Source: a virus
IMG/VR virus record: IMGVR_UViG_3300037222_000084
Location: 1-64,000 of that record
DNA: 64,000 bases
Direction: 5' to 3' (one strand)
Part shown: in pieces, positions 1 to 41,329 of the stretch
How positions within the stretch are numbered: the stretch's first letter is position 1
Layout of the letters: each line of letters starts with the position of its first letter
The notes under the pieces: generated by a model
Databases searched by the model: none
Seen by the model: the letters and a program-made list of their open reading frames with translations, nothing else
What the model was told of the DNA's origin: nothing
Position numbers and translations under genes: made by a program

Positions 1-26
1 ACTGTCTCAAAACAAAAGGGGTTCTT

Positions 27-815
27 ATGTATCAAAACAATGCAGCACGGTCTACGTCTTTCCTGCAAAATCAACCGCATGTCTCAAAAAGCGACAAGTT
101 TGTTGCAATTGAACCGGCTCAAATTGAGGCAGTTCTCAATGACCATGGGTTTGACTTGGTTCATCTCAAAACGGGACGCGCTAAGTCCGCCGATAGACAG
201 GACTTTCAGACCACAATTGCACGCTACCGTAGTCGGTCTCAATTTGAGATCAATGGGTCTCATTTTGATCTGATTTTTAAGGTGCCGCATCTTTATGGGA
301 AATTGGTCGGTGTCTTAGGCCTATTCCGTGGCGCATGCGCTAACCAATTGAACGTTGGGAAGCATTTTGAGACGATCAAAGTGGCACACTTAGCCAACCC
401 TGTCTCAGAATTAGACAGTCTCATTCCGATGCTTGTTGCACAGCAAGCGTCTCTAGTTGAGATGGTCAAAATGATGCAGGCCCGCACTGTGTCTCCAATT
501 GAGCTGGCTCAATTTGCGACAGAAGTGGCTCAAATTCGATTGGCTCAAACTGAGAATGTGTGCAAGATTTATGCCGCACCTCTTCTCAAAGTGAGACGCA
601 CTGATGATGCTGCTAGCGACTTATGGACCTGTCTCAATGTGGTACAGGAAAACCTTATTCGTGGTGGAGTAGGATATCAAACTGAGACGTTCGATATCAA
701 TAATATCAGAACGGTACGCAATTGCACCGCTCGGAATGTCTCAGAACAATCCGCTAGGGCAATTGATTTGAATGGCTCAATTTGGGACGCTGCATCCAAA
801 TTGCTAACGGCCTAA
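27..815 (+). CDS. DUF932/DUF945-family protein
   Basis: Motifs SDKFVAI..HGF, GLFRGACANQL and RRTDD..DLWTCLNVVQENLIRGG typical of the family; AAGGGG RBS. Confidence 0.75.
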   Translation: MYQNNAARSTSFLQNQPHVSKSDKFVAIEPAQIEAVLNDHGFDLVHLKTGRAKSADRQDFQTTIARYRSRSQFEINGSHFDLIFKVPHLYGKLVGVLGLFRGACANQLNVGKHFETIKVAHLANPVSELDSLIPMLVAQQASLVEMVKMMQARTVSPIELAQFATEVAQIRLAQTENVCKIYAAPLLKVRRTDDAASDLWTCLNVVQENLIRGGVGYQTETFDINNIRTVRNCTARNVSEQSARAIDLNGSIWDAASKLLTA

Positions 816-829
816 TTTGATACAGTTAG

Positions 830-856
830 GACTGCTCCAATATGGGGCAGTCTTTT
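830..856 (+). terminator. Rho-independent terminator
   Basis: GACTGCTCCA-ATA-TGGGGCAGTC hairpin followed by TTTT, just after the 27..815 stop. Confidence 0.65.
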
Positions 857-890
857 AGTGTACCAGAATGAAACAAAGGGGAGTATTAAA

Positions 891-1085
891 ATGGAACAGA
901 AGAAATCCCAATATGGGACGACTCGATTTATGGAATGCGCTCAATATTTAGTTGAATCAGAATGGGACGACTTTAAAAACTACGTATCAGAAGGGAACGA
1001 CCCATTTTGCCACATATATTCGACGGCCTATATTGCATTGCACGGTGAGGGCGATTTTGAGACGCTTTTAGGTACGATGGAATAA
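891..1085 (+). CDS. hypothetical protein
   Basis: GGGGAG RBS before ATG at 891. Confidence 0.65.
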   Translation: MEQKKSQYGTTRFMECAQYLVESEWDDFKNYVSEGNDPFCHIYSTAYIALHGEGDFETLLGTME

Positions 1086-1086
1086 T

Positions 1087-1102
1087 TGGCATAACAATTG
1101 CA
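1087..1102 (+). promoter_or_regulatory. sigma54 (-24/-12) promoter-like box
   Basis: TGGCATAACAATTGCA (GG-N10-GC), intergenic. Confidence 0.6.
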
Positions 1103-1114
1103 AGGGGTATCAAA

Positions 1115-1288
1115 ATGAAACGCGATCTCATGTTGAGACAGATTGATTATTGGCTCATAACAGCGAAATTCTATGTCTCAAAAGGAGACGGTTTCGATCA
1201 CTTAGTGTTTGACGCGCTAAATAGGGCGCAATATATAATGGATCAAATTGAGATGATGGAGTCTCCAAATGAAACAGTTAGCAAATAG
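1115..1288 (+). CDS. hypothetical protein (57 aa, absent from ORF track)
   Basis: AAGGGG RBS, ATG 1115, MKRDLMLRQIDYW...ETVSK, TAG 1286-1288. Confidence 0.6.
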   Translation: MKRDLMLRQIDYWLITAKFYVSKGDGFDHLVFDALNRAQYIMDQIEMMESPNETVSK

Positions 1289-1569
1289 TTCTAGGTGTAC
1301 CAAATTGATATGCTGTCAGATTTGCAGTGCATCGGTCGAGTCAAGTCTTGAACTAACACCGTTAGCGGTTAGTTATGGTCAAGCCTTGACGGTGTTAGGC
1401 TGTCTAGACTGTCTAAGCCTAAGCGTTAGGCATGGGTTAGGCGCGTTAGACATAAGAGCGTTAGTCTTAAATTGAGACGGTTTGCATTATTTTCTTTATT
1501 TTTCAGACTAACGCGGTTAGTCTTAATTAAGCGGTGCAATTGAGCACCGATAAAACGGGGAGTATCAAA

Positions 1570-2028
1570 ATGGGATATACGCATTATTGGTCGTTCAACG
1601 GCAAACGTGGACAAACGGCTCAAAATGAGAAGAAATATCAGAATGCGCTTAAGCAATGTGTCAAAGTGGTACAGTATTATTCTAAGACGTTTGGTGGTCT
1701 TAGTGGATACACCGCGCACGACGTATCGAAACGATACGGTGGTCTCAATGTGAATGGCTCAGAACGAGTCGGTAGTTGTGAGACGTTTGCATTCCGCGAA
1801 CACATGTCTCAAAATGAGCCGGATGCCTGTAAGACTAATCGGTGTCAATATGATACAGTCGTGACCGCGTGTCTTATCATTATGAAACAGTATCTTGGTG
1901 ACTCATTTCAAGTCGGCTCAGATGGATTCGTTTCAGATTGGGCCGATGGCCTGATTCTTGCAGAAAAAGTAACTCGTCTCAAATTGAGCATACCTGTCTC
2001 AATTGAGACCAAACGTAAGGTGGCTTAA
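1570..2028 (+). CDS. conserved phage hypothetical protein (MGYTHYW...CKT..YD type)
   Basis: GGGGAG RBS; MGYTHYW N-terminus and CKTNRCQYD motif. Confidence 0.7.
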   Translation: MGYTHYWSFNGKRGQTAQNEKKYQNALKQCVKVVQYYSKTFGGLSGYTAHDVSKRYGGLNVNGSERVGSCETFAFREHMSQNEPDACKTNRCQYDTVVTACLIIMKQYLGDSFQVGSDGFVSDWADGLILAEKVTRLKLSIPVSIETKRKVA

Positions 2029-2029
2029 T

Positions 2030-2428
2030 ATGGGACGTTCAAAATGGTCCGTGACTCGTTTTGAAACGCATCAAGGTGGGCGCTCATTTGGTCCACGCGG
2101 CAAGTATCGTTTTGAGACAAAATTGATTGCTCGTCTCGTTTATATACTGTGCCAAATTGAGGCACTGTTTACAGGTCACAGACCTTGGCTGTCTTATATT
2201 CCTACGTATTCAATTGATACAGACCTTGGCATTGATTTTGCAGATGCAGGTCAATGGAGATCGTATCATATTGAAACATCGGGTGATTCTTTTAATGAGA
2301 TGGTCGATAATGCGACTGTCTCAGAAATAGACCAAGACGGTGGCACAATTGATGCATATGGGTTAGGCGATGCACCGTCTCAAGTTGAGACAGCGTGTCT
2401 CAAGATGATAATGGATAAGGTGTTCTAA
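2030..2428 (+). CDS. hypothetical protein
   Basis: ORF packed directly after 2028. Confidence 0.6.
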   Translation: MGRSKWSVTRFETHQGGRSFGPRGKYRFETKLIARLVYILCQIEALFTGHRPWLSYIPTYSIDTDLGIDFADAGQWRSYHIETSGDSFNEMVDNATVSEIDQDGGTIDAYGLGDAPSQVETACLKMIMDKVF

Positions 2429-2463
2429 TTTAGAGCGTTTCAAACTTAAACAAAGGGGATTTT

Positions 2464-3135
2464 ATGGACTTACTGACTCAAAATGGGAAAATGAAGAAGT
2501 CGTCTCAAAATGGGATTACCAATGTGAATTGGACGATACCAGCGTTTATGTCTCAAACTGGGATTAAGACGTGTCCCAATGCGGGATTATGCGCGGTGGG
2601 CTGTTATGCGCGTCAAGGCGCGTATATGTTTGGGAATGTCAAGACAGCACACGAGGCTAAACTGGCATTGACTCAAAATGATACATTCGTTGGCATGATG
2701 GTTGCAGACATTGAGCGGTGGCTCAATAAGAGAAACACCAAACGTCTCGTTGTGAGAATCCATGATGCGGGTGATTTTTACTCCATGCAATATTTAGACC
2801 GATGGATTAAAATTATGTCTCACTTTGAGGCAGACAAACGTGTCTCGTTTTATGCCTACACAAAGCAAGTGGAGATGTTTCAAAATGAGAAAGCGCGTTT
2901 GCCTAGCAATTTTCGTGCCATATTCTCGTTTGGTGGCAAACAAGACAAACTGATTCAAATTGATACAGATTTCCATGCGCGTGTATTTGAGACAATGGAT
3001 CAATTAGAGGCAGCAGGGTATCAAAATGGGACAGACGACGATATGGTTGCAGCGTTAGGCGTATCAAATAAGATCGGCCTAATATATCATGGGACTAAGA
3101 ACTATATCAATACGAGATGGGATAAGGTGGCATGA
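2464..3135 (+). CDS. Gp88-like phage protein
   Basis: TCPNAGLCAVGCYA Cys cluster, RIHDAGDFYS and FYAYTK motifs. Confidence 0.75.
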   Translation: MDLLTQNGKMKKSSQNGITNVNWTIPAFMSQTGIKTCPNAGLCAVGCYARQGAYMFGNVKTAHEAKLALTQNDTFVGMMVADIERWLNKRNTKRLVVRIHDAGDFYSMQYLDRWIKIMSHFEADKRVSFYAYTKQVEMFQNEKARLPSNFRAIFSFGGKQDKLIQIDTDFHARVFETMDQLEAAGYQNGTDDDMVAALGVSNKIGLIYHGTKNYINTRWDKVA

Positions 3136-3557
3136 AAATTGATAAGCGTCTCAATGCGAGACATAGCGTTGGTAACACGCGCTCTAGACAGTCTAAGGGC
3201 TCTAGTGGGTTTACCACGCTATACACGCATTATAGACTTAGGGCTCTAAGGCGCGGCTATAGTTGGGACCTAACGAAGTCTCAATTTAAGACGTTTTGTG
3301 AATTGAATTGTTTTTATTGTGGCATTGAACCTAGACAGATACAGCGCGTTTACAGTAAAGAATGTACCAAAGAGGGACTTTTGAATTCTGCATATGTTTA
3401 CAATGGGTTAGACCGCGTGGATAACTCTAAGGGCTATAGCGTGGATAACTGTAAAACGTGCTGTAAAACGTGCAATAGGGCTAAGGATATAATGAGTTAT
3501 CAAGACTTTAAAGATTGGATAAGTAGAGCGTACAAAAATTTGAGCGTATCAGAATGA
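3132..3557 (+). CDS. HNH-type endonuclease
   Basis: CFYCG ... GLDRVDNSKGYSVDNCKTCCKTCNRAK. Confidence 0.8.
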   Translation: MKIDKRLNARHSVGNTRSRQSKGSSGFTTLYTHYRLRALRRGYSWDLTKSQFKTFCELNCFYCGIEPRQIQRVYSKECTKEGLLNSAYVYNGLDRVDNSKGYSVDNCKTCCKTCNRAKDIMSYQDFKDWISRAYKNLSVSE

Positions 3558-3561
3558 GACA

Positions 3562-3658
3562 TGGCACATAGTTTGCATATGCAATCGGTGTGCCAAAATT
3601 GTGGATGTATCGAATTGAAACACTGGCCGTTAGTTTGCATATTGCAAATTGCGTGTCA
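3562..3658. promoter_or_regulatory. Cluster of face-to-face sigma54 boxes
   Basis: + TGGCACATAGTTTGCA 3562-3577; - TGGCACACCGATTGCA 3595-3580; + TGGCCGTTAGTTTGCA 3624-3639; - degenerate TGACACGCAATTTGCA 3658-3643. Confidence 0.7.
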
Positions 3659-3675
3659 TATCAAAAGGAGACGGT

Positions 3676-3933
3676 ATGGAAAATCTCATATTGAAACAAG
3701 GTGATTTTGTCAAGGTCTTGGCCTTGACTGGAGACCTTAGAACGTTAGGCGTATCAAGCGGCGCGGTGTTAGTGGTCGAGACCTTAGGCCTTGACGGTGC
3801 CTTAGGCGTCAAGACGTGGCGCGGTGCCTTGACGTTAGTCAACGTTGACGGGACCTTGACCGATGCATGCCTTGACGTGGCGCGGTGTCAAGGGCCTAAC
3901 GTGGCGTTAGTCAAGGGGTTAGGCGCGGGTTAG
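3676..3933 (+). CDS. hypothetical protein with strongly biased sequence
   Basis: AGGAG RBS before ATG 3676; rich in CTTGAC/GTCAAG/TTAGGC words. Confidence 0.55.
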   Translation: MENLILKQGDFVKVLALTGDLRTLGVSSGAVLVVETLGLDGALGVKTWRGALTLVNVDGTLTDACLDVARCQGPNVALVKGLGAG

Positions 3934-4171
3934 GCGCGACCTTGACAGGCTAACCCATTGAAACGAGGCGAAAACGTCTCGTTTTGAGACAGTTTTTAGC
4001 GTTTCGAGGGGTGCTTATGGTCGCATGCATTTTTTAGCCGCGCTCAATGGCGGGGCGTTTAGGAAGTTGAGGGACCATGCCAAATTAATTTCTTAATTTG
4101 GATGTGATTATTTTGAGGCGCACCATAATCGCTCAGTGACAATTTATGTCAATGGAGATTCGTGCCAAGTC

Positions 4172-4184
4172 TAAGGTGTTGATT
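4172..4184 (-). promoter_or_regulatory. IHF-consensus site
   Basis: AATCAACACCTTA matches WATCAANNNNTTR; one-mismatch copies at 3951-3963 (-) and 4781-4793 (+). Confidence 0.45.
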
Positions 4185-4274
4185 TTATTGAGGATTTAGG
4201 GCCGTTTCAGATTGAGCTGTATAACTTTTAGATAGCATCTCATAATGAGGTGTTGTACCAATGAGGGATGAGAC

Positions 4275-4520
4275 ATGTCTCAAGACAAATTAGAACTGCC
4301 GTTAGGCGAATTGCTCAAACGTTTGCGCGATGCTGCCGATGTGAGCATTGGTCAAGGATACGTGACACAGCCATTGCTTAATTATATTAATGAGCTACAT
4401 CAACATTCTAGTGTTGGTGGTAAAGACTTAACCCATATAGCGTTTGAGCTACAACGCTTTGGACGCCTCAACTCTGAGGATATTCCCACAGTCCTGCATT
4501 ACCTCCAAAGATTCATCTAA
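4275..4520 (+). CDS. hypothetical protein
   Basis: GAGGGA upstream, 81 aa ORF. Confidence 0.55.
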   Translation: MSQDKLELPLGELLKRLRDAADVSIGQGYVTQPLLNYINELHQHSSVGGKDLTHIAFELQRFGRLNSEDIPTVLHYLQRFI

Positions 4521-4546
4521 AGACCTGCTAGGCCCATCCATTGGGC

Positions 4547-4646
4547 TGTCGCAATACTTCACACACTGTCGCAATACTGTCGCAATTGTCCCAATTAATA
4601 CAATTGGGACATTCTTTGTCCCAATACTTGTCCCAATTAATACAAC
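4547..4646. repeat. Intergenic cluster of TGTC(G/C)CAAT repeats with a palindrome
   Basis: Six direct copies and one inverted copy in about 100 bp; TTGTCCCAATTAATACAA twice; TGTCCCAATT-AATAC-AATTGGGACA hairpin. Confidence 0.85.
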
Positions 4647-4797
4647 CAAACTGTCTACGATCTTGACATTGTATAAAAGTTCGACGGGGTGGGTAAATTA
4701 TTGAAACCAATAGGGGTCTGGGCGAAAATCGTTTTTTCTGTACAACTGTTTTACAGAATCGTTTTTTTAGATGAGAGTCTTTTCAATAGGTTAGCAT

Positions 4798-4813
4798 TGG
4801 CACACGCACTGCA
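4798..4813 (+). promoter_or_regulatory. sigma54 promoter-like box heading the second early operon
   Basis: TGGCACACGCACTGCA, intergenic, IHF-like site just upstream. Confidence 0.65.
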
Positions 4814-4918
4814 TTAGTATCAAGTCACTCCTTATGTTTACGGAGTGGTGCAGAGTAGGCGGCTTGCACCATTCCGGTTTTATCTAGGGAGCAACAAACA
4901 AACGGTAGGAGTACCAAA

Positions 4919-5203
4919 ATGGGCGCTGAATTTTGTTCTACAACATTCACAGCAAAGACTTCTAAGCAAGTCAAAGAGAAACACGATGAGCTAGTTGAAC
5001 AGGCTCAATACGATCACGGACACTCTGGCTATTCTGGCTCATTCGCAGAAAGTCCTGGTGTCACCGTGTTACCAGCAGAGTTTGACAGCGTTGAAAATGC
5101 CGAAGAATACATTGACGAGAATGCAAAGAAGTGGGAAAACTCATTGGCTGTGCGTATTAAAGGCACAGATACATGGGTTATCGGTGGAGTGTTTTCGTCT
5201 TAA
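4919..5203 (+). CDS. hypothetical protein
   Basis: TAGGAG RBS; HGHSGYSGS motif. Confidence 0.7.
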   Translation: MGAEFCSTTFTAKTSKQVKEKHDELVEQAQYDHGHSGYSGSFAESPGVTVLPAEFDSVENAEEYIDENAKKWENSLAVRIKGTDTWVIGGVFSS

Positions 5204-5230
5204 TAACAAACAAACGATAGGAGTATCGTA

Positions 5231-5482
5231 ATGAAACAGCTAAGCATACAAGACATAGGCTCTATTGAAGTGGTCACTGTTCAATCTAAGGCTATTGAGC
5301 GCATCATGTGGGACCACAGAAAAGGCCAAATGATGATTAAGTTCAAGGATTCGCCAGTTTACGTCTACCCGACTGCTACGCGCTCTTTGTTTAAAGAGTT
5401 TGTGGCGTCTGAGTCTAAAGGGCGGTTTTTCTTAGCGAATATCAAGAAACAGCATGCTCAATTTTTGCGATTGGACAACTAA
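5231..5482 (+). CDS. KTSC domain protein
   Basis: SKAI..I.WD...MMIKFK..VYVY......F..FVASESKGRFF..NIK pattern. Confidence 0.8.
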   Translation: MKQLSIQDIGSIEVVTVQSKAIERIMWDHRKGQMMIKFKDSPVYVYPTATRSLFKEFVASESKGRFFLANIKKQHAQFLRLDN

Positions 5483-5833
5483 ATGACAATCGCATTCGAT
5501 GTAAAGGGTACGCTCGAAGGCCCTAAGGGTAAGTTTGTATTGGGCTTATTGCTTAAGTTGCAAGAGATGGGCCACGAGTGTGTCGTGTGGTCAGGCTCTT
5601 ACGGTTACGCGGTGGACTGTGTTGCAAAATATGGACTAGAAAACGTGCGTGCAGAATCGAAATCGGACAAGTGGTCTCGTGATGAGGCAAACTTCTACGA
5701 TGTAGCCATAGAGGACGACAGAGGTCAAACGTGGCTCGCTGCTAAGAAAATCGTTTTCGTAGATGAGTTGCCTAATGATCCTGGTGGCGTGAACAGATTG
5801 GCAGACATGATAACCGATGGAGAATTAAAATGA
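5483..5833 (+). CDS. HAD-like protein
   Basis: IAFDVKGTL, VVWSG and IEDD HAD-type motifs. Confidence 0.6.
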   Translation: MTIAFDVKGTLEGPKGKFVLGLLLKLQEMGHECVVWSGSYGYAVDCVAKYGLENVRAESKSDKWSRDEANFYDVAIEDDRGQTWLAAKKIVFVDELPNDPGGVNRLADMITDGELK

Positions 5834-6078
5834 GACGCTTAAATCGTGCTGGTTTCAAAGAGTTACGCGATGAGGCTTATAAGTCTGCTGGTATCGTGGG
5901 CAATGCGGCAGAGCGTTTTCAGACGCCACAGCTAGAGTGCGCCTATTCGTTGATGTGTGAGGGCCTTGACGCAATCGACGACCTAGGCTATAAATTGGGC
6001 TATCTCGACGCTGAGACCAATGAAGAGACGGAGCCCACCGAGGGCATTGACAGCGAAGGACAAGAAACGTTTGAATAG
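5830..6078 (+). CDS. hypothetical protein
   Basis: ATGA overlap with upstream gene. Confidence 0.6.
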   Translation: MRRLNRAGFKELRDEAYKSAGIVGNAAERFQTPQLECAYSLMCEGLDAIDDLGYKLGYLDAETNEETEPTEGIDSEGQETFE

Positions 6079-6232
6079 AATCATTTTTTTAGTAGTATTT
6101 CTAATGGGTTGTGCCGACAATGAGTTGCGTCAGTTCAACCACGAGGACAAAGAGGACTTAGACTGCTATGCCCATTATGGAGCAGAGCAGGGATACTGTG
6201 ACACGGTTTGGCACAAAGGAGTACCAAAATGA
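6071..6232 (+). CDS. small putative lipoprotein
   Basis: TTG start, hydrophobic stretch ending LMGC. Confidence 0.5.
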   Translation: MNRIIFLVVFLMGCADNELRQFNHEDKEDLDCYAHYGAEQGYCDTVWHKGVPK

Positions 6233-6414
6233 GCTGGCTGTTTTTAGTAAATACTGTTGTTTTTGCTGGGCTATACCTGATTTGGAATAAATCAGATTTG
6301 CTCAACTTCTCTCTAAAGGCTATTATGTTTGGTCTATTGGTTTTGAATGGCATTCAGTGCTACAAAGCATTTGAGGTGGATCGAGTTGAGGCAGCAAAGA
6401 GTGTGCCAAAATGA
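6229..6414 (+). CDS. small membrane protein
   Basis: AGGAG RBS, two hydrophobic segments. Confidence 0.6.
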   Translation: MSWLFLVNTVVFAGLYLIWNKSDLLNFSLKAIMFGLLVLNGIQCYKAFEVDRVEAAKSVPK

Positions 6415-6926
6415 ATACGAAACGTTTTAATAAAGGCGATTTGATTACACCTCAGAGAGGTAAGGGCGGATTTGGCGAAGTATTCAGGTTTGACTCTTAT
6501 GATTCAACGTCTAGCACAGATGGTTGGGTTATAAATAACAAGGGCGTATGCGTGAAGTGTGATTGTACGGGGATGGACCATTGTGATCCATCTGGACTTG
6601 CGATTGTGAAAACTATTTTTTCAGTTGGAGACACAATAGGTGTAAAGCCTGAATATGATAAGGATGGAAAGCACGTCAATACTCGTGGCATGATTCGTGC
6701 TATTGATGCTACCAAGTATTTCGTCCTGTGGTCTAGCGATCCCAACGGCATTCTGGTTGACTACCAGCACAATGAAGTAGATGTTATGGCTTATCTCATT
6801 CATAAGCAGGATGCACCATCAAGCGGTGGGCCGCATAACTGCGCGGACCACATGGAGTTTTGCCAGGGCTTTAGGTTCGATTATCGTTTCTGTAAAGTGT
6901 GTGGCTCAAAACATAACGCAGCATAG
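6411..6926 (+). CDS. hypothetical protein
   Basis: ATGA overlap; C-terminal CKVC. Confidence 0.65.
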   Translation: MNTKRFNKGDLITPQRGKGGFGEVFRFDSYDSTSSTDGWVINNKGVCVKCDCTGMDHCDPSGLAIVKTIFSVGDTIGVKPEYDKDGKHVNTRGMIRAIDATKYFVLWSSDPNGILVDYQHNEVDVMAYLIHKQDAPSSGGPHNCADHMEFCQGFRFDYRFCKVCGSKHNAA

Positions 6927-6934
6927 GAGATGTT

Positions 6935-7207
6935 ATGTCAGACAAAGAACGCAACGTGCGCGATGTGATAAACGATGTGAACAAGATGGCTGCTGCTGGA
7001 GTGCTCATACCACAGTATGAGGTTGAGGCTGATTCGTACATATGTTTCGTTGTGAGAAACCCTAATGGTCGCAGCATGTTGCACGCTGGGCGTATGGGCA
7101 TCTATCCAGAGGAACTGCAAAAATCGTTCCTAGGACTGTTTTTGAACGAACACATGGATAACTATAAGGTAATTGGCATCTATCAAATGTCGGAGTGGGC
7201 CAAATGA
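6935..7207 (+). CDS. hypothetical protein
   Basis: TAGGAG RBS. Confidence 0.65.
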   Translation: MSDKERNVRDVINDVNKMAAAGVLIPQYEVEADSYICFVVRNPNGRSMLHAGRMGIYPEELQKSFLGLFLNEHMDNYKVIGIYQMSEWAK

Positions 7208-7500
7208 GCAAAATCATTTCAATATTATACGAAGGAGTATTAATACGCATTGATGAGACAAGCACGCGATTTGATTGGCATTGGCCTCACACGCCCATTG
7301 GCATGGTCAAATATACGCCGCGCAAGGGCTCTAAACAGTTCCACTATGTTTATTTTGGACAGCAGGACGAGACAGCGTTAAATCTAGCTAATCGGCACTT
7401 AACCAATGAAATCGCTGAGTTACAGTCCAGAATTGAAGGTCTTAAATTGAGACTTTTTACAAAGGAAAACGTAACAAAACAACACGGTGTTGTAAAATGA
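7204..7500 (+). CDS. hypothetical protein
   Basis: ATGA overlap. Confidence 0.6.
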   Translation: MSKIISILYEGVLIRIDETSTRFDWHWPHTPIGMVKYTPRKGSKQFHYVYFGQQDETALNLANRHLTNEIAELQSRIEGLKLRLFTKENVTKQHGVVK

Positions 7501-8144
7501 GCAATGTAAATTTGGCAGACATACCATGCGAAGTACCTGACAAATTGACCGATACTAGTACGCTCGGTAGACGTGTCACAGAGATACTAAAGCGTATCAA
7601 TTTTCCCAACAGGGAACGTACCGTTATAGCGTTTGACAGCACAATGTTTGGTCTGCAAATTAGGATGCAACTTGAGGCCACAGACACGCGGACTGGTGGT
7701 CCCATATCGTTACAGCATTCGAGACAGGTCAACTCACAGATGAGCGACCAAGAGTTAGCGCGTCAAATATGCATACTCATGTCTCAAACTGCGATACACG
7801 AGTTTATGGAAAACTTTAGGTTTGACGGCGCTATCATGTTCAATCCACACGACGAAGGGCGCAATGGCATACTTTTTGATGCTGTCGCTAAGGCCGCATC
7901 GTTTCCTGAGCCTAAGGTTGACGATGGTTTTATTAAATTCAATATACCGCTGGCAGATACTTATTCCTATTCGTTTTACCACAGTAACCATAAGAAACCT
8001 AAGCCTTTACCAGACGTTGAGCCCGATCTCAAAACGTTACCACCGCTTGAGAGAGCGCGTGCGTTGAAGGAAAAGAATAAGAAAGTACAAAGCAATTTTG
8101 GTGCCAAAGACTGGCGTGCAAAACTGAGACGAGATGCTGCTTAA
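7497..8144 (+). CDS. hypothetical protein
   Basis: 215 aa ORF, ATGA overlap. Confidence 0.7.
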   Translation: MSNVNLADIPCEVPDKLTDTSTLGRRVTEILKRINFPNRERTVIAFDSTMFGLQIRMQLEATDTRTGGPISLQHSRQVNSQMSDQELARQICILMSQTAIHEFMENFRFDGAIMFNPHDEGRNGILFDAVAKAASFPEPKVDDGFIKFNIPLADTYSYSFYHSNHKKPKPLPDVEPDLKTLPPLERARALKEKNKKVQSNFGAKDWRAKLRRDAA

Positions 8145-8152
8145 AATAGTTG

Positions 8153-8180
8153 TTGCAATGCGTTTTGTTAGTGGTAGTAT
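8153..8180 (+). promoter_or_regulatory. sigma70-like promoter
   Basis: TTGCAA-16-TAGTAT with extended -10 TG. Confidence 0.4.
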
Positions 8181-8214
8181 TTACATAACGGCCTAAGTGC
8201 CAAGGGAGAATCAG

Positions 8215-8556
8215 ATGGGAAAACGTAAACGTAGAGACTATGAGTGTGGATTTACCGAGACCGTGATTGAGGCACCTAAGTTTGCCAAACTCTTGGCTCT
8301 TAACACGCTGCGATTCACAAACCGCAAAACCCTGACTGGTGAGTTTGTGTGGGGATTCGATGAAGGCTATATCGTGACCACAAACGATCCGTTGACTGGC
8401 AACTATAAACAGCCCGTCAATATGCACCTCCAAATTGGAGTAGCTGGTGACATTGGTGTTGTTGGCACAAAATCATTCCGTGATCGCGTGGCAAAATTTC
8501 TCAAGCGTAATGCGCTGAGCGCAGACTTCGACGGATCGACTCGACGTTACGTTTAA
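8215..8556 (+). CDS. hypothetical protein
   Basis: GGGAG RBS before ATG 8215. Confidence 0.6.
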   Translation: MGKRKRRDYECGFTETVIEAPKFAKLLALNTLRFTNRKTLTGEFVWGFDEGYIVTTNDPLTGNYKQPVNMHLQIGVAGDIGVVGTKSFRDRVAKFLKRNALSADFDGSTRRYV

Positions 8557-8580
8557 TTAACTCTTAACAAAGGATTTTTT

Positions 8581-8883
8581 ATGACAACGACTCAAAATGC
8601 TCTAGTTGTAAAGCGTTACGCAAACCGCAAACTGTACGATACTGAGAACTCAAAGTATATCACTTTGAAACAGATCGCTGCTGAGATCAAAACGGGACGC
8701 GAAGTGCGAGTGATGGACAATGAATCAAAACAAGACATCACAGCTACCACTCTGTTGCTGGCTCTCGTTGAGACTGAGGATGGTACTACCGAGGCTAGCG
8801 TGCTAGCAGGCATTCTACGCGCTGGAGGTTTAGCTCAATACGTGGCAGGTCTCAAGGCTAACCAACACCAGTTTTTGCCATAG
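8581..8883 (+). CDS. PhaR-like (PHB accumulation regulator N-terminal) DNA-binding protein
   Basis: VKRYANRKLYDTENSKYITL..I...I..G.EV.V.DNESKQDIT signature. Confidence 0.85.
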   Translation: MTTTQNALVVKRYANRKLYDTENSKYITLKQIAAEIKTGREVRVMDNESKQDITATTLLLALVETEDGTTEASVLAGILRAGGLAQYVAGLKANQHQFLP

Positions 8884-8891
8884 GAGATGTT

Positions 8892-9191
8892 ATGGTAACT
8901 ATTAATAAAGATATGAACATTGAATTGTCCACTGGCACGACTATTGATGTTGAGGTCGAAGTATTTGGTATCTTCGATTCTCAGTTTGGCGCAGATGCAG
9001 ACGGCAATAGAGGCGAGGGACGTTGGCTTATTGATTCTCACGGCTATTCTGTTAGCGATAACGTTTCGCTGACTGCCGAAGAAGAGGACGAACTAGATGA
9101 AAAGATTGAAGAAATTGTGTATGATGGGCAATGGGACTTCGCCAATGCAGACGACAACATCGTTGACGATGAGGGCGTTGATCTTTACTAG
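8892..9191 (+). CDS. acidic hypothetical protein
   Basis: TAGGAG RBS; FGADADGNRG motif. Confidence 0.65.
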   Translation: MVTINKDMNIELSTGTTIDVEVEVFGIFDSQFGADADGNRGEGRWLIDSHGYSVSDNVSLTAEEEDELDEKIEEIVYDGQWDFANADDNIVDDEGVDLY

Positions 9192-9675
9192 CCTGGCATG
9201 CTTATTGCTTGGATGTAATAGAGGGCTGCCGTTGCCTGCACCACAGGTTAGCATTGATCCAGTGCTGCAACCGTATGTTAACGACTTCGTTGCTGACGCT
9301 GCCTCTGTGGGCCGCACGATTGATATTAATAACCTAATCGTGCAGTTTGCGCCAGACTTAGGCAATAGCTCATTGGGCGAGACTGTGGGCGAGTGTAAGA
9401 TACAGTATTACAATGGGAATGTTTACGGCACGCCCACGATACTGATAGACAGGCCTTTCTTTGAAGGCACCGATGCGTGGTCGCGACACACTGTTATGTA
9501 TCACGAAATGGGACACTGTGTCTTATTCCGAGTGCATAGACTTGATTGGATATCGCTCTATGGTCCTGATTTGTTTCAGCATTCTATTGCATCATCTATC
9601 ATGTATCCGTATGTGGTCGCGAGTGCGGACGCTCAGATGTTCTCAAATTATTACGTATCGGAGATGTTCCAATGA
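9169..9675 (+). CDS. lipoprotein, putative zinc metallopeptidase
   Basis: Lipobox LLGC; HEMGHCVLFRVH and SIMYP (metzincin-like). Confidence 0.7.
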   Translation: MRALIFTSLACLLLGCNRGLPLPAPQVSIDPVLQPYVNDFVADAASVGRTIDINNLIVQFAPDLGNSSLGETVGECKIQYYNGNVYGTPTILIDRPFFEGTDAWSRHTVMYHEMGHCVLFRVHRLDWISLYGPDLFQHSIASSIMYPYVVASADAQMFSNYYVSEMFQ

Positions 9676-9878
9676 AGTCTAAACATGGCATGATGCTTGC
9701 AGCTATCTTTGGCTTATTCGCTGTCGCTAGCGGTCACGTACCTGTCTACCACGAGCCTAAGAAGAAGGCCCAGGACTTCACAGACGAAGAGTTAGAGGCG
9801 GTTAGGTCCTGCGCTACCAAACAGGAGCGCAAAGCAATGGTGAACGAACTACGGCGTAAATACGCTAAGAAGGTCTAA
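9672..9878 (+). CDS. hypothetical protein
   Basis: ATGA overlap. Confidence 0.55.
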   Translation: MKSKHGMMLAAIFGLFAVASGHVPVYHEPKKKAQDFTDEELEAVRSCATKQERKAMVNELRRKYAKKV

Positions 9879-9879
9879 C

Positions 9880-10353
9880 ATGGTGTATCTATTGTGTTTT
9901 AACTCCAAACTGAAACATGCTAAGCATTATATTGGTTACACTAAAACTCCAGACGGATTAGAGCCACGCATGGAAAAGCACAGAAAAGGCACTGGTTCCA
10001 AGCTGATGGCTGCTGTCGCTAAGGCTGGCATAGATTTTGTTGTCACGCGCATGTGGCCAAATGGAGACCAGACATTTGAACGTATGCTCAAAAACAAGAA
10101 GAATTCCAAATACTTATGTCCGAATTGCACGCCGAATATCAAAGCGGTACAGTACGTATTGCACGATATTGAAACGCTCCCAATTGATGCGTCGAACTCT
10201 TCGACTTTGCCTAATAGTTCGACACTTGTAATCATTGAGGATTCTTACGTAACGTCTAATCCATTGACATATCAGGCCTTCCAAGTCAACCACAGGCCCT
10301 GGCGACAGCGGCACACCGATTGCTATAGTATACCTGCAACAAGGAGTTGTTAG
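9880..10353 (+). CDS. GIY-YIG-like nuclease
   Basis: VYLL...HYIGYT...R...H..G.GS pattern. Confidence 0.7.
   Translation: MVYLLCFNSKLKHAKHYIGYTKTPDGLEPRMEKHRKGTGSKLMAAVAKAGIDFVVTRMWPNGDQTFERMLKNKKNSKYLCPNCTPNIKAVQYVLHDIETLPIDASNSSTLPNSSTLVIIEDSYVTSNPLTYQAFQVNHRPWRQRHTDCYSIPATRSC
10309..10324 (+). promoter_or_regulatory. sigma54 promoter-like box upstream of rIIA
   Basis: CGGCACACCGATTGCT about 30 nt before the rIIA ATG; 14-nt core identical to the minus-strand box at 3581-3594. Confidence 0.6.
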
Positions 10354-12471
10354 ATGAAACTAGCCGCCCACGATAATTCAATGGAGACAAACACAGAGAC
10401 GGTCTCCCAGAACTTTGGAATTGGCAATCTTGCTGTATTGATTGGCCTATTGCGTAAGAATGTGTACCAGCATCGCATTCGTACTCTCGTTCAAGAGTAT
10501 ATGTCAAATGGACGCGATTCTCAACGTGAGGCGAAAACCTCTAAGCGCATGGTCGTGAGTATTCCCAATGAGTTAAGTCCTGTGTTTAAGGTGCGTGACT
10601 TTGGTGTTGGTATCACTCCGCAACGTATGAGCGGCGTATTCCTTCAGTACGGTAACTCAACCAAACGTAAGAGCAACAAAGAAACGGGCGGTTTTGGTAT
10701 CGGTGGTAAATCTGCGTTTGCATACACAGATTCTTTCACTGTTATCTCTATCACTAATGGAGTAAAGCGTACTTATGTCGCACACTTAGGTAGCGCCAAC
10801 GAAGGTAGCATGGATTTGCTGTCTGAAGTTGAGACAACAGAAGAATCTGGTGTTGAAATTCAAGTGGCTATTAAGCCCAATGATTCTCGTGAGTTTCGTC
10901 AGTCTGTATTTCGTGCAATGTATTTCTGGGCAGATACGGAACGCCCAGAGTTACGTGGACTTAGCTCATTGACAGATCAAATCGTCCATAAGCCTGGCCT
11001 TATGATTGGCAAAGAGTTAGAGATCAATGCAAATCCCATTCCAGATTTTATCCAAATGGACTATCACGCAAAATGCCTATTAGTTATTGATGGTATCCCC
11101 TATCCCGTGGGCGAAGATTTGATCGAGAAAATCCCAAATATGGAAAGTCTTTTGGAGCGACTTGTCTCAAAGGCGATCATCCACATTGGCAACGGTGTTA
11201 TCGAAGTCGCTATGTCTCGCGAACAAATTGCTGACAGCCCGTTTACTCTTGAGGCAATGGGCGACTTGGCTAAGACAATGGAGAATAGCCTTAAGTCTCA
11301 CATTACTACGATTTTCAAACAGGCTAAGACCAATGCTGAATGGATTAAGGCATTCAAAGAACTCTCTAAGTTTGCGAATGTTGACGATTATTCTAAGTTT
11401 GGTGACTATTCGATTGAGCGTAACTCAATCCAGTCAACGAAGTTTGCAGACATTGAATGCACACACGTTAGCCTTCGCACCAAGCGACGCGCTAAGAATG
11501 CCTCGCTAGAGCGTGAGACTGGACGTTTCATCACGCTGGATAACGTTGACCACGTATTCGTTTGTGATCTAACTGAGCCAGTAGTGACTCAAAATAAGAG
11601 AATGCGCGAGTACATGGAGCGCACGAATCGCATGTCAATGATGCTCATAAATGCGACAGAGAAGAAAATCGCAGACCCTAAATGGGTACGCCCTGCGCAA
11701 GTATCTGGACAGCCTTTAGTTATGGCTCCCATGATTGTGTCTCTGACATTTAAGGACAGCAAGAAGGTGTTGGCAAAAATCACTGCCGACTTCAACGCTA
11801 AGAACCTGTCTACGCTGCCCTATACGCCCACTGTGCGTATTCCGAAGGCTAAGCGTGATAGGACCAAAGAGATGTTCACGATGCACGAGAGCACTGGTAG
11901 TGGCAAATCACCAAAGACTACCACCATTGAGACTGTGCAAGCTACCTCAGATATGTATTACTACATTCCGTTCAAGCAGTACGACAAATTCGAGAATGAA
12001 CTCAACGACTTGTTCCATTATATGGATAAACAAAAGATTACACTATGCGCTATGACTGAGGATAGTATCAGTATGGTACAGGGTTGCAAACAGTTCAAGT
12101 CGTATACGGAATGGAAAACCAATTTTAAGCCAGATGCTAAAACGCTGGCACGCATGAAGGGCTCTAAGGCAAAGAACTGTAAGCATGTGAATTTGCTCAA
12201 GAGATCGAAAGAAGCTATCAAGGATAAGCATGTGGCACTGATGTTGCAAGAGTACAAGAACAACGTGATTGAGAGCGACATTGTACCAAAAACGATTTTG
12301 GATTGGTGTAAAGACGATCTGGCTCATTTTGTGGCAGAAGATGAGAAGTTGACAAAGCTTCTGAAAGAAGTATATCCTTTAGTTGGCGCATTGGAAAACG
12401 CTTACAACGTTACCACTGAGCATGTGGATGAATTGATTGTGTATATTAACGCTAAAAGCAAAGGGAGATAA
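10354..12471 (+). CDS. rIIA: RIIA-like protein (N-terminal GHKL ATPase)
   Basis: EYMSNGRDS, VRDFGVGI, STKRKSNKETGGFGIGGKSAFAYTDSFTV; followed by rIIB-like gene. Confidence 0.88.
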   Translation: MKLAAHDNSMETNTETVSQNFGIGNLAVLIGLLRKNVYQHRIRTLVQEYMSNGRDSQREAKTSKRMVVSIPNELSPVFKVRDFGVGITPQRMSGVFLQYGNSTKRKSNKETGGFGIGGKSAFAYTDSFTVISITNGVKRTYVAHLGSANEGSMDLLSEVETTEESGVEIQVAIKPNDSREFRQSVFRAMYFWADTERPELRGLSSLTDQIVHKPGLMIGKELEINANPIPDFIQMDYHAKCLLVIDGIPYPVGEDLIEKIPNMESLLERLVSKAIIHIGNGVIEVAMSREQIADSPFTLEAMGDLAKTMENSLKSHITTIFKQAKTNAEWIKAFKELSKFANVDDYSKFGDYSIERNSIQSTKFADIECTHVSLRTKRRAKNASLERETGRFITLDNVDHVFVCDLTEPVVTQNKRMREYMERTNRMSMMLINATEKKIADPKWVRPAQVSGQPLVMAPMIVSLTFKDSKKVLAKITADFNAKNLSTLPYTPTVRIPKAKRDRTKEMFTMHESTGSGKSPKTTTIETVQATSDMYYYIPFKQYDKFENELNDLFHYMDKQKITLCAMTEDSISMVQGCKQFKSYTEWKTNFKPDAKTLARMKGSKAKNCKHVNLLKRSKEAIKDKHVALMLQEYKNNVIESDIVPKTILDWCKDDLAHFVAEDEKLTKLLKEVYPLVGALENAYNVTTEHVDELIVYINAKSKGR

Positions 12472-12473
12472 TT

Positions 12474-13430
12474 ATGATTCCGTTTCTGAAAACCGAAGGT
12501 TCTGTGACGCTGCACTACAATGGCAAAACCGCTACAATCGCTAAGGGGGATGCTCGATTTGATAAAGTCCTGTTAGCGATTCGCGAAAATCGAACTGCCG
12601 ATGTAATCGAGTTGGCAGACAATGATTTGTACTTCACCAAGCAAGGCTTGAAGGTGCAAGACGGAGTGCTGCAACTTGAAGGTGAGGATATGCCTCTCGA
12701 ATTGTCACAGCGTATTCTGGGCTATAAAGAGGAAAACCTGCCCATTACTTCATTGCTGGCATTCTGGGCAAACCTTAAGCAAAATCCTTCGTTTAACTCG
12801 CGTGCTATGCTGTTCAAGTTTCTTGAGAACAAAGGCCACAGTATCACTGAGGATGGTCACTTCTGTGGCTATCGCGGTGTGACCTCAGACCTCAAGGATC
12901 GCCACAGCGGTAAGTTCGACAATAGCCCTGGCTCTGTGTGTCAAGTGCCACGCGAGAGCGTTGACGACAATCCTAACAATACGTGCTCGTATGGTCTGCA
13001 TGTCGGTGGCTACGAGTATGCTAAGGACTTCGGTCGCGGTGGTAAACTCGTATTGGTCAAGGTAAACCCCAAAGACGTGGTGGCAGTACCAAACGACTAT
13101 AACGGTCAAAAGATGCGCGTATGCCGCTTTGAAGTGCTTAAAGAGGCTACTGACATTCTCGACAAGAACGTGGTTGCAGCCGATGGTGGAGACTACGACG
13201 ATGAAGTGGAGTTTGAATTTGCCGACTTCGGATTCGACGATGAAAACATTTGCGAAGGTTGCGAAGAAGACATTGGCGATGAGACAGCGCCTTGCGCAGT
13301 AGCTCCTAAGCCTAAGCACAATTTGCTGAGCCCTAAGCGCAAGAAAAGCACTTATAAGAACAACCATGCAAAACGTGGGCCAGATGGCAAATTCATTCCT
13401 AAGAAGAAGAAAGCACGAAAGGCTAAGTAA
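12474..13430 (+). CDS. rIIB: RIIB-like protein
   Basis: FW.NL..NPS, ITEDGHF.GYRGV, VDDNPNNTCSYGLHVG, VKVNPKDVVAVPNDYNGQKMRVCRFEV. Confidence 0.88.
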   Translation: MIPFLKTEGSVTLHYNGKTATIAKGDARFDKVLLAIRENRTADVIELADNDLYFTKQGLKVQDGVLQLEGEDMPLELSQRILGYKEENLPITSLLAFWANLKQNPSFNSRAMLFKFLENKGHSITEDGHFCGYRGVTSDLKDRHSGKFDNSPGSVCQVPRESVDDNPNNTCSYGLHVGGYEYAKDFGRGGKLVLVKVNPKDVVAVPNDYNGQKMRVCRFEVLKEATDILDKNVVAADGGDYDDEVEFEFADFGFDDENICEGCEEDIGDETAPCAVAPKPKHNLLSPKRKKSTYKNNHAKRGPDGKFIPKKKKARKAK

Positions 13431-13684
13431 TGGAAAATCCAAGGCTAAGTAAGATCGTCGTAGATGATGTTATCTACGGCGTAATGTTCTGGGACTTCGG
13501 TAGCTTCATCAGGCTGGATGTGTACCAAAACAATCGTCGTGTTGGAATGCGCAGATTGCCCTTGACGGTGGACCAAGAATATCGGACGATTAGGTACTTG
13601 ATTCGCAGAATGGTAGGTAATTATGGGATTATGGGACGCACTGTTTCCCGTCGTAAAGAACTCAATCACGGAAGTCCCAGCTAA
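13430..13684 (+). CDS. hypothetical protein
   Basis: TAATG overlap. Confidence 0.55.
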   Translation: MENPRLSKIVVDDVIYGVMFWDFGSFIRLDVYQNNRRVGMRRLPLTVDQEYRTIRYLIRRMVGNYGIMGRTVSRRKELNHGSPS

Positions 13685-13838
13685 GATAGGCTGGCTAAAC
13701 TGTGAGAAATGTTCTGTCGAAGGGATTGACCTGTATATAGTTGAGCCCTACCATCAGTATTTCTGCACTGAGTGTGCCGAAGGACACATTAGGCGTCAGC
13801 GTTTTGAGGATGAAGAAAAGGATTGGAACTCTAAGTAA
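13623..13838 (+). CDS. small Cys-rich hypothetical protein
   Basis: CEKC...CTEC; start uncertain. Confidence 0.5.
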   Translation: MGLWDALFPVVKNSITEVPAKIGWLNCEKCSVEGIDLYIVEPYHQYFCTECAEGHIRRQRFEDEEKDWNSK

Positions 13839-13895
13839 CCTATGATAAGTTTTACATACACCGTGGGTTTAAGTTACCCACAGAAAGAAGTTTTT

Positions 13896-14585
13896 ATGAA
13901 AATCGTTTTTTTGGTACTGACCATTAGTATGTTGGCGGCGTGTTGCGGTCCCATTGGTGACACTGGCGCGACTGGCGCTAAGGGTGACAAAGGCGATCCT
14001 GGAGCACCTGCGCCTACTCCTACCGTGACCGCTATTCAGCAAATTGTGAATAGTGAGAATGCCTACCGCGAGACACAAGGTCAAGCACCTTTGACCTCAG
14101 GCTTAGCATGCACCGTTCAAGCTATTGCGTCTGGCACCTATTTGTCGAGTAGCAGTCCTGGATATACAGTAGCGCAAGCTATTGTATTGACTGGTACTTC
14201 TTACTCATACTTGCTGTCCACATCAATCAATCAGCCAAACGTAGCGGGTACTGCTGGCAATAGCTTGATTGATCCTGAGATTGCGCCTTTGTTCTTGAAC
14301 AACAACTATCGCATTGTCTGCACAGGACAATTGGCCGTTACTGAGGATGGTTATTACGGATTCTCTACGTCAAGCGACGACGGCTCTCTCGTTTTCGTAG
14401 ACGGCGCATTGGTAGTGGACAATGATGGAGCACATGGTCTACAGACTGTCAGTGGCACCAAACTTCTTCAAGCCGCTGTTACCCACACGTTCCAGCTACA
14501 ATACGCTGAGAGTGCTGGCGGTAACATCGGTATGATCTTGAACATGAATGGTTCTGTATTGCCTGCGGCTAACCTGTACCACTAG
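13896..14585 (+). CDS. lipoprotein with collagen-like repeat and PA14 domain
   Basis: LAAC lipobox, GPIGDTGATGAKGDKGDPG, SDDGSLVFVDGALVVDNDGAHG. Confidence 0.8.
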   Translation: MKIVFLVLTISMLAACCGPIGDTGATGAKGDKGDPGAPAPTPTVTAIQQIVNSENAYRETQGQAPLTSGLACTVQAIASGTYLSSSSPGYTVAQAIVLTGTSYSYLLSTSINQPNVAGTAGNSLIDPEIAPLFLNNNYRIVCTGQLAVTEDGYYGFSTSSDDGSLVFVDGALVVDNDGAHGLQTVSGTKLLQAAVTHTFQLQYAESAGGNIGMILNMNGSVLPAANLYH

Positions 14586-14806
14586 TGACCGAGCATCGCT
14601 GTCGGCATTGCTCCGAACTCATTATAGTCAATGAAACTCCTAATCCTGGCGAGGATTGGGAGTGTTTTTTTGAACGCATGGACATTATCGCAGAGGCCAT
14701 AAACGGTGGCCAAATCCTACTCACATTTTGTCGAAAAGAATGCTTGTGGTCATACCGCGTAATGAACCGCACGCACCTACGCTTGGCTGGCATCGTAACC
14801 CGTTAA
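14585..14806 (+). CDS. small Cys-rich hypothetical protein
   Basis: CRHC...FCRKEC. Confidence 0.5.
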   Translation: MTEHRCRHCSELIIVNETPNPGEDWECFFERMDIIAEAINGGQILLTFCRKECLWSYRVMNRTHLRLAGIVTR

Positions 14807-14947
14807 CGATTTAGACAGCGATCAATAGTTCTACGGCCTACTATAACAGTCCAAAACCACTAAAGAATGCTGATTTGGCCTAGTTTAGTAGTCTAAAAGT
14901 TCAACACTTGTAAAATTTGCCACAGTTGAAATCATTAGGTTTTTGGT

Positions 14948-14963
14948 TGGCACATGCTCTGCA
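14948..14963 (+). promoter_or_regulatory. sigma54 promoter-like box
   Basis: TGGCACATGCTCTGCA, intergenic, followed by AGGAGG and GTG at 14986. Confidence 0.65.
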
Positions 14964-14985
14964 TTACCTATACGCAGGAGGCATC

Positions 14986-15599: not shown

Positions 15600-15607
15600 G
15601 AGGATTT

Positions 15608-41283: not shown

Positions 41284-41329
41284 AACTACTCCGTTTCATT
41301 GTATTTCTTAAAGATTGTTTTGGTGTTGA

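Follow-up and report, generated by a model that had tools for sequence, protein, structure and literature searches.

Sigma-54-type promoter boxes in a large phage related to Myxococcus phage Mx1 and their counterparts in Bdellovibrio chromosomes

The first 64,000 nucleotides (nt) of the 86.9-kb virus record IMGVR_UViG_3300037222_000084 (the window, from the genome designated G000) belong to an uncultured ~170-kb relative of Myxococcus phage Mx1, and were analysed for boxes of the form YGGC-N9-GCW, whose GG and GC stand exactly 10 nt apart. These boxes are probably sigma-54 (RpoN) type -24/-12 elements that would be bound by the sigma-54 polymerase of the host, most likely a Bdellovibrio-like predatory bacterium as judged from shared motifs. 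The boxes fall into two classes. Class A would comprise working promoters for non-structural operons, including rIIA/rIIB, whereas class B, which lies in or beside a palindrome array, appears to copy a host promoter design and would probably load the host polymerase, together with a host protein that binds the palindrome, onto the phage DNA. The ATPase that opens the boxes would be supplied by the host or by an unrecognised phage factor.

Enrichment and recurrence of the boxes

An earlier note on this DNA had listed fifteen boxes (1087, 1947, 2227, 2341, 2691, 3562, 3580(-), 3624, 4798, 6686, 9194, 9686, 10309, 12233 and 14948), and every one of these coordinates carries YGGC-N9-GCW. The enrichment that it expected over shuffled sequence and over the rest of the genome was likewise observed: the loose pattern YGGC-N9-GCW occurs 63 times in the 64 kb, compared with 31.8 occurrences expected from 100 dinucleotide shuffles (standard deviation 5.6, maximum 44), and 27 of the 63 matches fall within bases 1-16500. 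The strict form TGGC-N7-TTGC is present 15 times in bases 1-16500 (nine on the plus strand, six on the minus strand) and nine times in the other 70.4 kb of the record. The excess is seen at the sigma-54 spacing only, as TGGC-Nk-TTGC with N3-N6 or N8-N12 yields 0-2 matches each in bases 1-16500, with nine matches at k = 7 and 2-6 at every other k in the remaining 70.4 kb. When synonymous codons were shuffled within genes (n = 300), a procedure that keeps about 4-5 intergenic sites fixed, the strict form was recovered 6.0 times on average (standard deviation 1.0, maximum 11), well short of the 15 observed.

Positions that had not been used to seed the search display the same preference. Among 21 TGGC-N8-TGC sites, A is found at position 5 in 16, C or T at position 6 in 19, T at position 12 in 15, and A or T at position 16 in all 21, while the flanks of these sites are not conserved. 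These unseeded positions agree with the sigma-54 consensus mrNrYTGGCACG-4bp-TTGCWNNw, which is given for 186 promoters from 47 species in the part of PMC2725144 available to us. The sigma-54-type -24/-12 signal is therefore genuine, both by its spacing-specific enrichment and by its fit to the consensus.

The earlier statement that nearly all boxes lie on the coding strand proved too strong, since the loose matches in bases 1-16500 divide into 18 on the plus and nine on the minus strand and the strict matches into nine and six. Eight loose minus-strand sites (561, 2905, 5087, 5559, 6393, 8091, 13367 and 13764) had been missed, so that the strand bias amounts to 2:1, and four plus-strand sites (8294, 13007, 13964 and 15849) had also gone unlisted. 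The loose-only sites at 5087, 8294, 13007, 13764 and 13964 are probably chance matches. None of the six antisense strict sites has a sense-strand position ahead of a gene.

The signal recurs in related phages. The comparison set consisted of G000 and 20 related phage genomes (21 in total). In five of the genomes, with 38-47% G+C, TGGCA-N7-TGCW was counted 20, 24, 15, 12 and 10 times, with mostly 0-5 matches at other spacings. Across the 20 related genomes, 103 TGGCAY-N6-TGCW boxes were detected, compared with 24 at a spacing one nucleotide longer and 17 for the reversed pattern. Clusters of boxes on one strand were observed in G001, G004, G005, G006, G007, G009 and G017. In the last of these, eight sigma-54-type boxes lie within about 8 kb (G017:C1:590-8677, minus strand), and seven of the eight are near-identical (TGGCAYYGTCAATGCA) and stand ~1-2 kb apart, which suggests tandem gene cassettes, each with its own promoter.

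The two classes of boxes and their counterparts in Bdellovibrio

Class A is represented in the window by the boxes at 4798, 10309 (before rIIA) and 14948, which exhibit complete promoter anatomy ahead of operons and lend support to the earlier reading. Alignment of 25 class A sites from five genomes revealed TGGCAY-N6-YTGCW followed by TTAGAT or ATAGAT, with a ribosome site and a start codon 19-60 nt past the box. Sense orientation with room for a leader is also found in 19 class A sites from four relatives, and in G005 and G009 almost all boxes are intergenic and on the coding strand. The earlier note had placed five boxes just upstream of genes; this holds, with leader room, for 4798, 10309, 14948 and the class B box at 3624, and fails for 1087, where such room is absent. 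The word WWTCAA-N4-TTR occurs at one fixed offset (-17) in eight of the 25 class A boxes, where it abuts the box. Farther upstream lies the motif TAAAAGTTCNACA, which takes the form TAAAAGATCNACA in G005. In G005 the end of the motif and the box are separated by exactly 42 nt in all six pairs, and in G000, G001 and G002 together five pairs show a separation of 41-43 nt; other copies stop 50-51, 84-85 or 109-117 nt short of the box, and a second copy is often present about 70 nt farther upstream. For the motif copy at 4672-4686, counterparts likewise stand at constant distances from the boxes of G001, G002 and G005. The spacer between upstream motif and box varies in sequence, a pattern that suggests two protein sites kept at a constant distance on the DNA. 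In five Bdellovibrio genomes the upstream motif was not found before boxes, so that it is taken as a phage-specific site. A working class A promoter would consist, in order, of TAAAAGTTCNACA 41-43 nt upstream, the TCAA-N4-TTA word, the box, an A/T-rich stretch and a gene start 19-60 nt later. A sigma-70 reading of the region upstream of class A boxes (TTGACA-N5-TAAAAG) was inspected by eye and dropped, as no -10 element stands at a workable distance.

The nearby sites described earlier as resembling those of integration host factor (IHF) fared unevenly. The site at 4172 (minus strand) is an exact WATCAANNNNTTR, and those at 4781 and 3951 (minus strand) each differ from it at a single position. 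Exact matches to WATCAANNNNTTR number three in bases 1-16500 and 12 in the 86.9 kb (both strands), and the IHF claim in its earlier form appears weak.

Class B boxes are mostly intragenic and occur on both strands. The palindrome array in or beside which they lie, whose consensus was derived from unseeded flanks, contains 62 sites with at most three mismatches in the first 4 kb, only four of them with exact cores, and it extends upstream of the window's counterpart in G001 and G002. A palindrome often ends 0-10 nt ahead of a class B box; for 12 of 31 array boxes from three genomes the distance from palindrome end to box is between -2 and 10 nt, compared with 10-20% of random positions. Boxes facing each other were observed in the window (3562/3580), in G001 (59133+/59153-) and in G018 (2267+/2289-). 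Besides probably loading host proteins, class B boxes may function as additional promoters, internal or antisense, or may soak up these host factors, and it is possible that the internal boxes titrate RpoN polymerase, as put forward earlier.

The consensus of the phage array equals a palindrome of Bdellovibrio, which is present 44-61 times per Bdellovibrio genome (0-1 in the control) and 0-4 times in five genomes of other groups. About 40 distinct exact sites per genome were counted, located inside and between genes, and the binder therefore looks like a global host protein. A search for palindrome and box together, with one genome per species, returned 120 composite matches, 80 of which had titles, and 18 of these titled loci came from Bdellovibrio or Bdellovibrionales. 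A group of about 25 among the 120 was set aside as a false positive, being one conserved coding stretch (TCTCAATATGAGATGGCATNNNNNATGCA). This stretch is spread over Poribacteria, Bacteroidota, Verrucomicrobia and others (L125, L127, L131 and about 22 further loci). Among 301 genomes of the phylum of Bdellovibrio, 20 composite matches were detected in 16 genomes, with none in the control. The Bdellovibrio unit is positioned between a terminator-like hairpin and the gene for a related secreted protein of ~65 residues, and Bdellovibrio species share the palindrome arms, a 9-nt gap, TGGCAC and TGCA but differ in the bases between these elements. The secreted family itself, with a signal peptide and the segments NPKC[SA]H and LFKNTNP, was observed at L134:1477-1677, L138, L139, L140 and L161; a Pfam search with six host proteins downstream of composite promoters gave nothing firm.

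In phage and host composites alike, TCTCA-N3-TGAGAC directly precedes a same-strand TGGCAY-N6-TGCW at a distance of ~1-30 nt. The host design was defined as a TCTCA-N3-TGAGA(C) whose end lies 0-30 nt before TGGCAY-N6-TGCW, with both elements on one strand, and this layout, with degenerate palindromes, was found in the window at 3546-3577, 3607-3639, 1930-1962, 2318-2356 and 2670-2706. The palindrome-then-box arrangement of 3546-3639 recurs in host promoters, and the spacing of about 1-2 nt at L193 is almost that of window positions 3546-3577. On the other hand, the host has 1-4 exact composites per genome, ahead of secreted-protein genes, whereas the phage has about a dozen in a few kb, mostly with degenerate palindromes, intragenic and in both directions. 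The proposal that the phage draws on host RpoN is strengthened here, since the probable host group conserves box plus palindrome as a promoter design and carries rpoN (one per genome in five of five Bdellovibrio genomes) and 15-19 matches per genome to the activator family PF00158. The density of boxes in the candidate host is 41-51 per 3.3-3.8 Mb (17-24 in a reversed control); bases 1-16500 of the window contain 16 TGGCAY-N6-TGCW, about one per kb, which is about 70 times the host density.

Readers of the boxes and competing explanations

No sigma-54 DNA-binding domain was found in five phage genomes, and no activator ATPase (PF00158 over the cut-off) was found in G000 and its 20 relatives. 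Because the phage is without a sigma-54 and without a recognisable AAA+ activator, the ATPase that opens the promoters must come from the host or be an unrecognised phage factor. A possible hidden activator, the BCS1-like AAA+ protein (18183-19502, plus strand) encoded in the operon that follows the 14948 box, was rejected, as it has a BCS1 N-terminal domain, an N-terminus resembling a membrane anchor and no PF00158 match. Sigma-70-like promoters and one perfect sigma-28-like promoter are also present in the phage, and the earlier inference that an early programme as a whole runs on RpoN goes beyond what was observed. Outside the window, G000 encodes a sigma-like protein (78051-79133; L118:1357-2439) with no Pfam or PHROG match, which is a homologue of the Mx1 'putative sigma factor' and has more than 1000 metagenome relatives; the 120 best listed are 69-97% identical, and some are named 'specialized sigma subunit' by the Joint Genome Institute (JGI). 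The structural genes carry a different motif, (C)AATCTTTAG, 20-40 nt ahead of start codons on both strands (for example at 41284-41330, 45324-45427, 47783-47839 and 51713-51914), which is probably a late promoter read by the phage sigma-like protein.

Several observations weigh against reading the boxes as sigma-54 elements of a Bdellovibrio-like host. The missing activator leaves promoter opening unexplained in the 21 phage genomes; no RNA runs carrying this DNA appear among the runs listed, which are peat and permafrost DNA only; and motif sharing is the sole basis on which we infer the host. On the phage side, four relatives (G012, G013, G014 and G016) have zero boxes, Mx1 shows no enrichment (three TGGC-N7-TTGC matches in 170 kb), and in G002 two other spacings also give 11-12 matches. 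Exact palindromes number only 4-8 per phage genome, the others being degenerate; class B positions are not kept between G000 and G001 or G002 where the DNA aligns; and in G002 most class B boxes point against genes, which is odd for ordinary promoters. The box at 1087 cannot have a normal leader, because the start codon lies only 14 nt past the -12 C. On the host side, only 1-4 of the about 40 palindromes per genome adjoin a box, and for this reason the palindrome binder would not be a dedicated sigma-54 partner. Finally, the class A upstream motif could itself be the promoter, with the box in the 5' leader.

This last arrangement, in which TAAAAGTTCNACA would be the true promoter (with a -10 like that of T4 late promoters) and the box, ~45-60 nt into the leader, would act as a roadblock, switch or RNA element, is very unlikely. 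It would account for the fixed motif-to-box distance, for the TATAAAAG-like words, often doubled, with which the motif begins, and for the resemblance of the reverse complement of the G005 motif to the late motif; however, the 42-nt spacer varies, as for two protein sites and unlike a conserved leader, half of the motif copies read AATAGTTC, which is not late-like, an Rfam scan of bases 1-16500 matched no family, and the motif was not found with class B or host boxes. That the pattern arose by chance, or as a by-product of base composition and codon use, is hardly credible: although the coding strand is somewhat enriched in TGGC and TTGC words and the few loose sites named above are probably accidental, the spacing control, the dinucleotide and codon shuffles (both with maxima below the observed counts) and the recurrence in relatives ranging from 38 to 47% G+C all speak against it.

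The boxes might alternatively be mostly a decoy, holding host sigma-54 polymerase while the palindromes hold their binder, so that host promoters would be starved or the phage DNA shielded. The density of the boxes relative to the host, their presence on both strands, their positional turnover and face-to-face pairs in three genomes, and the lack of a detected phage activator would suit such a role, as would the stability of the closed complexes that sigma-54 polymerase forms without an activator, as stated in the available part of PMC2725144. Against this stand the strict geometry, sense orientation and appropriate start distance of class A in at least four genomes and the class A-like character of nearly all G005 boxes, and a mainly decoy role is judged unlikely. 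It is quite unlikely, moreover, that a phage factor, the sigma-like protein or another DNA-binding protein, reads the motif and that the likeness to sigma-54 is convergent. A sigma-like gene with JGI-named 'specialized sigma subunit' relatives is indeed present, an ordinary sigma factor would not need the activator that was not detected, and the class A upstream motif is phage-specific. Yet this gene is found in 20 of 20 relatives, including the four box-free ones, and its divergence does not track box presence; because of this, and because the structural genes carry AATCTTTAG, a motif that suits the protein better, the phage sigma is an unlikely reader of the boxes. Furthermore, the box fits the sigma-54 consensus at every informative position and at the right spacing only, and box plus palindrome also occur in the chromosomes of Bdellovibrio, where the phage factor is absent. 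The probable explanation thus remains that the sigma-54 polymerase of a Bdellovibrio-like host binds the boxes.

The earlier note had also proposed that the phage switches sigma-28 off and sigma-54 on. The first half of this scheme is tentative, as it relies on a Pfam match to FlgM (anti-sigma-28) that falls just under the cut-off (E 7.9e-5, 23.2 bits against a 25-bit cut-off), and a FliA (sigma-28) type promoter at 1527 suggests that the phage also makes use of sigma-28 at some stage, beyond silencing it. The FlgM match covers residues 553-580 (53571-53654) of the prohead-protease-like protein encoded at 51915-53900. The FliA-type promoter (1527-1552, plus strand) is a perfect TTAAG-N15-CCGATA with a gene start at ~1570, and in the G002 array three 10-of-11 FliA-type matches (140926, 143869 and 145363) are found on the strand of the early genes, two of them within a longer shared conserved sequence. 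On the strength of these four sites the phage may first use sigma-28. In B. bacteriovorus, 92 of 140 attack-phase promoters are of the FliA type, according to the portion of PMC3627812 available, and for that reason switching sigma-28 off would gain a rationale with a Bdellovibrio host. A broader scheme, speculative and as a whole unlikely, is that a large Bdellovibrio virus without an activator of its own takes over the non-growing attack-phase cell by sigma redirection. In such a takeover, dozens to more than 100 degenerate palindromes would soak up or recruit a host master regulator, the boxes at ~70 times the host density would capture sigma-54 polymerase for the non-structural operons, the FlgM-like peptide from the capsid protease would shut down sigma-28, the driver of most attack-phase promoters, and the phage-specific site at -75 would open the sigma-54 promoters in an undescribed way.

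Genomic setting, known systems and significance

The capsid protein is 52% identical to that of Mx1 (169.6 kb), the closest cultured relative, and 66 related viral contigs were identified; the record is taken as about half a genome because many of these contigs span 150-177 kb. Sequencing runs carrying this DNA are peat and permafrost metagenomes, mostly from the probable source sample. Bases 1-22000 contain tightly packed plus-strand genes, which include DUF932-like, GP88-like and endonuclease VII/HNH-like proteins, a PhaR-like regulator, rIIA, rIIB, a PA14 protein, the BCS1-like AAA+ protein and a Thg1-like enzyme, and the structural genes follow on the minus strand. The PhaR-like gene (8581-8883) has only 39-52% matches to assorted metagenome genomes and is uninformative for the host. 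DNA searches of the phage collection for close and for remote relatives were unproductive, rIIA as a single query found no relatives among the viral contigs, and a genome paper for Mx1 was not found in the literature. The features of the window are given in Table 1.

Table 1. Positions and properties of boxes, upstream motifs and palindromes in the window
Feature	Position	Strand	Remarks
Class A box	4798..4813	+	TGGCAC-N6-CTGCA then TTAGTA; gap before 4919-5203 operon
TTTCAATAGGTTA	4781-4793	+	Fixed -17 position relative to the 4798 box
Upstream motif TATAAAAGTTCGACG	4672..4686	+	Distal position, ends 111 nt before the 4798 box
Class A box	10309..10324	+	CGGCAC-N5-TTGCT then ATAGTA; inside end of gene 9880-10353; -12 C 31 nt ahead of rIIA start 10354
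Upstream motif AATAGTTCGACA	10213	+	Ends 84 nt before the 10309 box
Class A box	14948..14963	+	TGGCAC-N6-CTGCA then TTACCT; -12 C 24 nt ahead of GTG start 14986, which has an AGGAGG ribosome site
Upstream motif, two copies: AATAGTTCTACG at 14824, TAAAAGTTCAACA at 14894	14824..14906	+	End 112 and 41 nt before the 14948 box
Palindrome array	1..4300	.	Consensus GTCTCA-AAW-TGAGAC; mostly degenerate copies inside real genes; holds class B boxes
Class B hub	3546..3639	.	Palindrome 3546-3560; + box 3562-3577 facing - box 3580-3595
Class B hub, second half	3607..3639	+	Palindrome 3607-3621; box 3624-3639; gene start ~3677
Class B composite	1930..1962	+	Degenerate palindrome 1930-1944; box 1947-1962; inside gene 1534-2028; -12 C 42 nt ahead of next gene start
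Class B composite	2318..2356	+	Palindrome 2318-2332; box 2341-2356; gap 8; inside gene 2003-2428
Class B composite	2670..2706	+	Palindrome 2670-2684; box 2691-2706; gap 6; inside GP88-like gene 2464-3135; aligned G001 site degraded (TGGTCTAATAATTGCA)
Antisense intragenic box TGGCACGAAAATTGCT	2905..2920	-	Full match to published consensus; not kept in G001
Box	1087..1102	+	Fills 29-nt gap before gene 1115-1288
Sense intragenic box	2227..2242	+	Pattern match
Antisense intragenic box	5559..5574	-	Pattern match
Antisense box	6393..6408	-	Junction of genes 6208-6414 and 6411-6926
Sense intragenic box	6686..6701	+	Weaker -12 (GTGCT)
Antisense box	8091..8106	-	A palindrome-like site lies 9 nt upstream, on the strand of the box
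Sense box	9194..9209	+	Directly past stop codon of gene 8892-9191
Sense box	9686..9701	+	14 nt inside gene 9672-9878
Sense box, 3' part of rIIA	12233..12248	+	-12 C 227 nt ahead of rIIB start
Antisense box in rIIB	13367..13382	-	Not kept in G002
Sense box	15849..15864	+	Inside gene 15802-16074; weaker -12 (GTGCA)

Bacterial sigma-54 promoters, of which glnAp2, pspA and nifH are examples, resemble the phage boxes in the 10-nt distance between GG and GC, in the TGGCAY and TTGCW words and in the A/T bases after the GC. Class A also recalls the classic layout of enhancer, IHF site and promoter, with sites at ~-70 and ~-140 from the expected start and an A/T-rich word between. The differences are that the phage boxes are far denser than those of the candidate host and often intragenic or directed against genes, that no activator gene was found in the phage, that the phage upstream motif is asymmetric and held at a rigid 42 nt, and that the bend-like word is placed right next to the -24 element and not midway. 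The intragenic sigma-54 sites of Salmonella and E. coli are comparable in that consensus boxes occur inside genes in both sense and antisense orientation. In those bacteria most sites reportedly lie inside genes and number hundreds or fewer per 4-5 Mb chromosome, whereas here about one per kb is seen, in a virus.

Lytic phages are thought to start on the main sigma factor of the host or on a polymerase of their own. The only published use of sigma-54 by a phage that was found in the literature is a single promoter of Pseudomonas phage YuA, which is said to be a siphovirus of ~58 kb. Transcription of YuA depends on host sigma-70 and sigma-54 (Ceyssens et al. 2008, as described in the part of PMC10914365 available); like the present phage it is lytic and has a sigma-54-like promoter (P015, with a mapped start), and no activator is reported in that part of the source. 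Compared with the one mapped sigma-54-like promoter described there for YuA, the present case involves a ~170-kb myovirus family in which boxes are clustered in groups of 5-18, an upstream module keeps a fixed geometry and some boxes are linked to an array of a host palindrome. Particular to this case are the second, phage-specific module and the Bdellovibrio link.

A ~170-kb phage family thus appears to put non-structural operons, including rIIA/rIIB, behind sigma-54 promoters without an activator having been found, and the missing activator raises a testable question, namely who opens these promoters. For the regulation of Bdellovibrio, two features are added for which no description was found in the literature, a palindrome of ~40 exact copies per genome and a conserved palindrome plus sigma-54 promoter ahead of genes for small secreted proteins; a description of a sigma-54 regulon in Bdellovibrio was not found either. 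To our knowledge, no large tailed phage of the Bdellovibrio group has been characterised at the genome level. A Bdellovibrio host, if true, would be relevant to how predatory bacteria fare in nature (their ecology) and to proposals to employ them as living antibiotics, and the link can be tested in a culturable bacterium.

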